A DNA stretch of 64,000 nucleotides from Mustelus asterias (Eukaryota). Where the stretch lies: contig NC_135815.1 in NCBI RefSeq assembly GCF_964213995.1, forward strand, positions 78,802,001-78,866,000, read 5' to 3'. The position numbers and the translations under genes were made by a program. Within the stretch, counting starts at the first letter, position 1. Every line of letters starts with the position of its first letter. The notes beneath the pieces are model-generated. The model was not told where the DNA came from. It was given only the letters and a program-made list of their open reading frames with translations, and did no database searches. This document shows, one piece after another, positions 13,756 to 14,286 of the stretch.

Positions 13756-14286
13756 TCAAGATGTTTTGTAATTAGAAGTTAGCCAGGTTAGCCCTTCAAA
13801 AAGTCCATCTCCAGTGGTTGCTGACGAAGGTTGAACGTACCAGTTGCGATCTCGTATCCTAGTTAGGCCCAGTTTCTCCTGGATCTCATGGGGTTTCATG
13901 GCATCAGGCAGGTCTTGCTTGTTTGCAAAGATCAGGATAATGGCATCACGCATTTCTCTGTCATTTATGATGCGGTAGAGCTCTTGCCTGGCTTCGTCAA
14001 GGCGGTCTCTGTCGGCGCAGTCTACCACAAAGATCAATCCCTGGGTGCCTGTGTAATAGTGCCTCCAAAGAGGTCGAATCTTTTCCTGACCACCTACATC
14101 CCAGACGCTGAACCGAACCTTCCTGTAAATCACTGTCTCCACATTAAAGCCTACAGTCGGAATAGTACTGACAGGCTGTCCCAGTTTGAGTTTGTACAAT
14201 ACCGTAGTCTTCCCAGCTGCATCCAGGCCCAGCATCAGAATTCGCATTTCTTTGTTTCCAAAAATCTTCGACAGGAATTTCCCCAT
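13756..14286 (-). CDS. ARF6: ADP-ribosylation factor 6-like small GTPase, 176 aa, single coding exon
   Basis: [18 protein letters not shown] start with myristoylation Gly2 and strong Kozak (AAAATGG); [14 protein letters not shown] and NKQD motifs; ARF6-type short N-terminus; about 16 differences from human ARF6 as recalled, so orthologue versus paralogue is unresolved. Confidence 0.93.

Follow-up and report, generated by a model that had tools for sequence, protein, structure and literature searches.

The ARF6-type gene and its neighbours

The window, that is the whole stretch C15:78,802,001-78,866,000 (64,000 bases without N, 41% masked), belongs to the 3.68 Gb genome of Mustelus asterias and contains an ARF6-type gene located between GEMIN6 and SRSF7. 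Its features, in window positions, are the following.

1895..2100 (upstream end provisional), minus strand: GEMIN6 promoter, rich in CpG, and probable first exon, non-coding, with a donor (CAG followed by GTGAG) at 1895/1894
12403..13755, minus strand: likely 3' untranslated region of the window ARF6, from a repeat-free block and an AATAAA at 12903
13756..14286, minus strand: ARF6-type coding sequence, intronless, 176 aa (ORF call, translation, PDB match and alignment)
14287..14797, minus strand: last exon of the window ARF6, probable 5' untranslated part, from splice-site scores and a repeat-free flank
42001..43000, no strand: strongest CpG island of the window by CpG content, the SRSF7 promoter
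42396..42423, plus strand: SRSF7 coding exon 1 (MSRYNRCGG, then a GT donor), read from the sequence
58423..58605 (approximate ends), plus strand: SRSF7 RRM exon, from an exon match
63125..63303 (approximate ends), plus strand: SRSF7 zinc-knuckle exon, from an exon match

The reading frame at 13756-14286 is open from ATG to TGA and encodes 176 residues, equivalent to human ARF6 plus one residue. In PDB the protein matches ARF6 (2a5d) with 366 bits, as against 264 bits for ARF1 and 251 bits for ARF5, which places it in the ARF6 class, and the match is far above chance (E 2e-109). It is 91% identical to human/vertebrate ARF6 (2a5d, 1e0s, NP_001654.1), so the ARF fold is not in doubt, and NCBI already has a record of it. 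The sequence-only reading had estimated about 16 differences from ARF6; the alignment gives exactly 16 in 175 positions against a mammalian-type reference whose C-terminal 175 residues were judged by eye to equal those given for human in the PMC8358228 supplement. These are V4F, I29V, S38P, T40S, T53I, K55R, N56K, K58R, N60S, D68E, I96L, H104Y, C155S, S158T, Y163F and S175T.

The motifs identified are Gly2, GLDAAGKT (20-27), PTVGF (43-47), WDVGGQ (62-67), NKQD (122-125) and SSAT (154-157). As in human ARF6, the copy presents a short N-terminus, Gly2, Lys3, all the G-boxes, Q67, T157, T79 and a single coding exon. It is unlike human ARF6 in the 16 substitutions (eight of them in residues 36-68, and Cys155 replaced by Ser outside that range), in one extra C-terminal residue, in its location by SOS1, GEMIN6 and SRSF7 and not by SOS2 and ATL1, and in lacking an adjacent CpG island. 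The N-terminus aligns with ARF6 without gaps, and its Gly2 and short helix predict myristoylation. Motifs G1-G5 and the catalytic Gln67 are intact, with G5 carrying C155S. Of the ARF6-specific residues Q37 and T79 are retained whereas four are altered (S38P, T53I, K58R and N60S). These alterations at Ser38 and the JIP4 residues lower the case for a functionally ARF6 gene, not its family membership.

Candidate splice acceptors were identified at 14795-14798, although others closer to the ATG also score; positions 14269-14989 are free of repeats. No CpG island of its own was found within 27 kb upstream of the window ARF6, in which the copies on C18 and C24 described below differ from it. No long poly(A) tail was found near the gene, the longest A runs being of 9 bases in 1.75 kb downstream.

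The nearest neighbour found is GEMIN6, not SRSF7, with its coding exons 3-6 kb left of the window at C15 78.796-78.799 Mb. In the likely GEMIN6 exon 1 and promoter a CpG-rich unit of 26 bases is repeated in tandem about six times (1920-2090), each copy with what we take to be a CRE-like core. That the ARF6 gene is nested in the first intron of GEMIN6 was also weighed, and discarded because a CpG-rich candidate for a separate GEMIN6 exon 1 is present at about 1.9-2.1 kb. On the other side, the divergent arrangement with SRSF7 at about 28 kb was read correctly from the sequence: both genes are head to head and ATG to ATG is 28,110 bases. The SRSF7 CpG island is a candidate shared promoter for the window ARF6, and no consensus minus-strand donor was found in 42001..43000. 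The interval between both genes (16000-48500) is mostly LINE/SINE-type repeat, and no coding exon stood out there among 30 of the 419 candidate frames of the window.

Three ARF6 genes in three gene blocks

A genome search with the window protein gave 45 matches. Three correspond to ARF6 genes of full length and without introns, namely the window copy on C15, a second on C18 and a third on C24 (C24:50,949,625-50,950,149). The possibility that the window gene is the only ARF6 of this genome is thereby discarded. Identity to the window query is 91% for the C18 protein and 87% for the C24 protein. Compared with mammalian-type ARF6, 3 residues differ in the C18 protein and 8 in that of C24, where residues 1-11 account for five; with 16, the window protein is the most altered of the three copies. 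The C24 gene is intact and its N-terminus is altered, with Lys3 lost. The C15 and C18 proteins both have 176 aa. Proteins identical to that of C18 and to that of C24 are recorded in several other sharks, one named 'arf6b' and the other 'ARF6' or 'ARF6-like'. A 509-base fragment 97% identical to the 3' end of the C18 gene, thus C-terminal, was identified on the small contig C3716 at 22.3-22.8 kb.

Pairwise synonymous differences are 0.81 (C15-C18), 0.82 (C15-C24) and 0.63 (C18-C24), and the non-synonymous ones are 0.051, 0.073 and 0.041 in the same order. Identical fourfold sites are 27/67, 23/64 and 33/70 respectively, where composition predicts identities of 0.25, 0.25 and 0.33, so they are near but not at saturation. 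The high pS, the low pN and the near-saturated fourfold sites indicate that the copies are old and constrained by purifying selection. The window gene has 77% nucleotide identity to the two other copies, and no non-coding similarity among the three was found beyond one repeat. The genes around each copy are listed below.

C15 78.52 Mb, plus strand: SOS1-type RasGEF exon (best match SOS1)
C15 78.74-78.77 Mb, plus strand: DEAH-helicase exons (protein match)
C15 78.80 Mb, minus strand: GEMIN6 (coding-exon match)
C15 78.82 Mb, minus strand: window ARF6 (ORF)
C15 78.84-78.87 Mb, plus strand: SRSF7 (exon matches)
C15 78.89-78.95 Mb, minus strand: GALM (protein match)
C15 79.00-79.02 Mb, plus strand: HNRNPL paralogue (exon match)
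C15 79.16-79.19 Mb, plus strand: atlastin, not ATL1 (best match ATL3; no ATL2 among 13 PDB matches)
C18 53.54-53.59 Mb, minus strand: ATL1 (exon match)
C18 53.71 Mb: MAP4K-type exon (exon match)
C18 53.79-53.81 Mb, plus strand: CDKL1-type exons (exon match)
C18 53.98 Mb, plus strand: SOS2 exon (best match SOS2)
C18 54.14 Mb, minus strand: canonical, near-invariant ARF6 (genome search)
C24 50.81-50.85 Mb, minus strand: HNRNPL (exon match)
C24 50.95 Mb, minus strand: C24 ARF6 (genome search)
C24 51,011,092-51,016,679, minus strand: zinc-knuckle SRSF7 paralogue (exon matches)
C24 51.06-51.11 Mb, minus strand: CDKL1-like kinase (exon match)

The C15 block contains SOS1, GEMIN6, GALM and the DEAH helicase in the flanks of the window, as the sequence-only reading had predicted. 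From its position we take the helicase to be DHX57, and the HNRNPL paralogue is presumably HNRNPLL; the atlastin is ATL2 by elimination. Apart from ARF6, we assume the order of this block to be that of human 2p22. Left of SOS1, a search of 200 kb revealed no exon of CDKL or MAP4K, which counts against the correspondence of the blocks; a genome-wide CNH search missed the MAP4K genes near these loci.

The C18 block contains the expected near-canonical ARF6, with 3 differences, at 165 kb from the SOS2 exon and 0.55 Mb from ATL1. The window gene is therefore not the canonical orthologue, since the SOS2, CDKL1, MAP4K and ATL1 block and the ARF6 with 3 differences are both on C18. The orientation of SOS (plus) and ARF6 (minus) is the same on C15 and C18. 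NEMF was also identified on C18 but 7 Mb from ARF6.

The C24 block comprises HNRNPL, ARF6, the SRSF7-like gene and the CDKL1-like kinase, all within 300 kb, with ARF6 61-67 kb from the SRSF7 paralogue. The RRM exon of the latter is 87% identical to that of the window SRSF7, and a literature search found no paper on a second zinc-knuckle SRSF7-type gene. An intronless, stop-containing retrocopy of it was identified at C7:53,774,791, and two SRSF3-type genes on C21 and C25. Exon 1 of the CDKL1-like kinase is 93% identical to C18 CDKL1, and the gene is likely a further ohnologue. Of 625 candidate ORFs from C24, 150 were scanned against Pfam, with a zinc knuckle, a reverse-transcriptase fragment and one weak DUF match as the only results.

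Further families are shared by the three chromosomes. The three ryanodine-receptor genes found are on C15, C18 and C24, which together account for all 13 RyR-repeat matches; of the two chromosomes compared with named receptors, C24 best matches RyR1 and C15 RyR2. A RASGRP-type gene is present on each chromosome, the C24 one being nearer C15 in the shorter exon (81% vs 75% for C18) and nearer C18 in the longer exon (70% vs 58% for C15). The unplaced small contigs C4433, C3161 and C4339 add one more atlastin, the third, and one more RASGRP-type gene, the fourth; they are candidates for a fourth paralogous block, where the genome search gave no full-length ARF6.

Orthologues and possible function of the window copy

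Orthologues of the window gene were identified in Callorhinchus milii (XP_007892562.1; 146/176 identical) and Scyliorhinus torazame (GCB70885.1 and XP_072353916.1; 159/176 identical), among the best 120 of 316 matches listed and by a cluster look-up. In the databases they carry the name 'ARF6' or 'ARF6-like', the same as canonical ARF6. GEMIN6 is numbered next to them (XP_007892562/XP_007892563 in Callorhinchus, with records of equal length, and GCB70885/GCB70884 in S. torazame), an adjacency indicated by consecutive accessions and record size and not read on DNA. The GEMIN6-adjacent orthologues in chimaera and catshark suggest that the arrangement likely predates the shark-chimaera split. No orthologue from rays, carpet sharks, bony vertebrates (bony fishes included) or cyclostomes was found among the matches listed, which cover 15 of the 807 proteins in the main cluster. 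A second search, with the chimaera protein, added no vertebrate member in 93 matches, and no other chondrichthyan gene is listed in ten more clusters. The window-type ARF6 is not known from mammals, judging by the single human entry in the table of PMC8358228.

A protein tree of 30 rows, hand-chosen from the proteins gathered and with a bootstrap that had not settled, groups the window, catshark and chimaera proteins with a support of 95/92. The class III phylogeny proposed from the sequence thus gave this clade but not the backbone, where the relation of the three shark copies was not recovered. The combination P38, R55, Y104 and S155 was identified in 4 of 176 ARF proteins, all four of the window clade, and 137 of the 176 have none of these residues.

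Squamates and Xenopus also present a second, slightly divergent 'ARF6-like', the squamate form sharing P38 with the window copy. These were considered as orthologues of the window gene and rejected: they form a separate clade (93/89), the squamate gene is on contigs of 27-29 Mb as opposed to 170-358 Mb for squamate GEMIN6, and it adjoins a SMOC-like gene. They are probably of the C24 type because the best shark match of this SMOC-like neighbour is on C24. The match, at C24 58.56-58.58 Mb, is to the gene fused to ARF6-like in a Phrynosoma model and suggests a third SMOC gene. The SMOC query also matched a tandem array at C18 52.20-52.28 Mb, in which over 20 exons carry thyroglobulin type-1-like repeats.

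Regarding function, 8 of the 16 changes of the window protein are in residues 36-68, that is switch I and the interswitch (hypergeometric P 0.003, the range being picked after the changes were seen). Other 175-aa ARF6 proteins, as a background of related rows, have 169 of 1498 differences in these residues. The Callorhinchus orthologue has 7 of 28 (P 0.25) and is not clustered. According to PMC10547916, Ser38 governs GDP dissociation of ARF6, and Thr53, Lys58, Asn60 and Thr79 are its JIP4-specificity determinants; a Q37E/S38I ARF6 is described in PMC3207291 as defective in actin remodelling. A shifted effector face is proposed because Ser38 and three of the four JIP4 determinants are changed in the window copy. 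The protein, predicted from its motifs, would be a myristoylated GTP/GDP switch at plasma-membrane and endosomal membranes, ARF6-like and putatively expressed, where S38P, T53I, K55R, N56K, K58R and N60S may alter GDP release and JIP3/JIP4-type binding, an effect to which we give an even chance. We are evenly divided, too, on whether the gene product would be a working GTPase with such a shifted effector face, judging from the residues changed.

Rather less probable, but to be taken seriously, is that the window gene is a true ohnologue without a distinct role, that is a redundant copy of low expression, under relaxed selection and heading to loss. This concerns function only and is compatible with an origin by genome duplication. 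Summed branch lengths from the backbone agree with it (0.08 for the window, 0.12 for catshark and 0.17 for chimaera, vs 0.015 for C18), as do the odd changes at conserved sites and the 3-residue deletion near the C-terminus in catshark, which fit decay as well as new function. The gene was not seen in other groups among the matches listed, the 28 changes of chimaera are unclustered, and T53I, N60S and D68E are private to M. asterias. However, the reading frame is open in three lineages spanning the shark-chimaera split with four shared derived residues fixed, pN is far below pS (0.05 vs 0.81, against C18), and all the nucleotide-binding motifs are intact, which speaks against a copy on its way to loss.

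Origin of the three copies

The window gene is very probably a class III ARF (ARF6), one of three, that arose as an early-vertebrate genome-duplication copy and was kept in sharks and chimaeras, with a predicted myristoylated switch and a likely shifted effector preference. Since the protein tree does not separate the three copies, this origin rests on synteny. The copies are on different chromosomes among paralogues of the same families: SOS1/SOS2, the atlastins, the SRSF7, HNRNPL and CDKL pairs, three RyR and three RASGRP genes. We equate the regions on C15, C18 and C24 with the human paralogy group formed by 2p/1q43, 14q/15q and 19q13. The duplication is older than the shark-chimaera split, with synonymous sites near saturation.

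The sequence-only reading had proposed a sister of ARF6 from early vertebrate duplication. Synteny supports the origin, but in a genome with three copies, where canonical ARF6 probably has its closer sister on C24. The window copy probably separated from canonical ARF6 at the first round, with C24 as second-round sister; this is suggested by the proximity of C24 to C18 in the synonymous sites of ARF6 and in the longer RASGRP exon, together with the pairing of human 14q/15q with 19q13, which we assume.

One alternative, which we regard as improbable, is that canonical ARF6 was retroposed, or transposed as a single gene, into the SOS1 block in the chondrichthyan stem and that this old insertion was kept. 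It would account for the intronless coding region, the lack of a CpG island in the 27 kb upstream (in contrast to the copies on C18 and C24), the finding of window-type genes only in cartilaginous fishes among the proteins gathered, and the equal length of 176 aa of the C15 and C18 proteins, in a genome where retroposition has been active (the SRSF7-like copy on C7 and the ARF6 fragment on C3716). The missing intron is no sign of retroposition because vertebrate ARF6 is normally intronless, as in the three copies here and in the human gene ('1 exon only' in the PMC8358228 supplement). A parent coding sequence also without introns, no long A tract and the GEMIN6-adjacent orthologues do not fit a retrocopy, and the orientation of SOS and ARF6 on C15 equals that on C18. 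The odds of a chance insertion within 70 kb of SRSF7 are about 4e-5, and C24 presents a second case of ARF6 next to a paralogue of SRSF7; for these two reasons block duplication is the economical reading. The orphan retrocopy without syntenic orthologues foreseen from the sequence alone is discarded by the GEMIN6-numbered orthologues in Callorhinchus and S. torazame and by the C24 ARF6 near its SRSF7 paralogue.

Equally improbable is the origin of the three blocks by segmental duplications outside whole-genome doubling. Three chromosomes with seven shared families were compared, and a fourth block appears only as unplaced atlastin and RASGRP contigs, which leaves some room for it; the paralogues (RyR, RASGRP, SMOC, SOS, atlastin and CDKL) nevertheless span tens of megabases, and presumably follow the human paralogy group named above. 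An assembly artefact or a pseudogene is hardly conceivable: the expression of the gene is presumed, but the window has no N, nucleotide identity to the other copies is 77%, NCBI holds a record of the protein, and the annotated orthologues in two other species refute an artefact.

The genome-duplication origin bears on how the family is described. The paralogues ARF1-3 and ARF4-5 (classes I and II) are traced to duplications basal to the vertebrates (PMC6727740, PMC8358228), and the accounts of these expansions in both papers name no such duplication for class III. Arf6 duplicates 'only sporadically' according to PMC8358228, whose supplement presents one human Arf6, three fugu Arf6 (Arf6a/b/c) and an amphioxus Arf6; a term search of the supplement gave no match for Callorhinchus, Xenopus, Anolis, Latimeria, Gallus or Petromyzon. 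In literature searches (subscription journals being outside their coverage) no description of ARF6 ohnologues in vertebrates came up. Three syntenic ARF6 copies in shark revise the picture of a vertebrate expansion limited to classes I and II, and the single-copy human ARF6 would therefore reflect loss and not non-duplication. That cartilaginous fishes keep ohnologues is frequent, however, and not surprising as such.

Tentatively, and with more doubt than confidence, ARF6, regarded as the only ARF class without a vertebrate expansion, may have been multiplied by the genome doublings, with three copies in sharks and an unnoticed second copy in frogs and squamates; the copy linked to GEMIN6 may be a distinct class III ARF whose remodelled switch I/interswitch alters GDP release and which has dropped JIP3/JIP4-type effectors. 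The copy is a natural variant at the residues separating ARF6 from ARF1 effectors and offers a ready test of effector specificity. Genes called 'ARF6' in Xenopus and squamates, and perhaps those of teleosts, may not be orthologous to human ARF6.

Teleost ARF6 pairs are usually read as teleost duplicates; it could be that one of the copies is orthologous to a shark copy and has not been recognised as such. In zebrafish, arf6a and arf6b are on chromosomes 20 and 17 and their proteins are identical (PMC4574480). Teleost arf6a/b and fugu Arf6a/b/c are thus, as in shark, more than one ARF6, but with near-invariant proteins.
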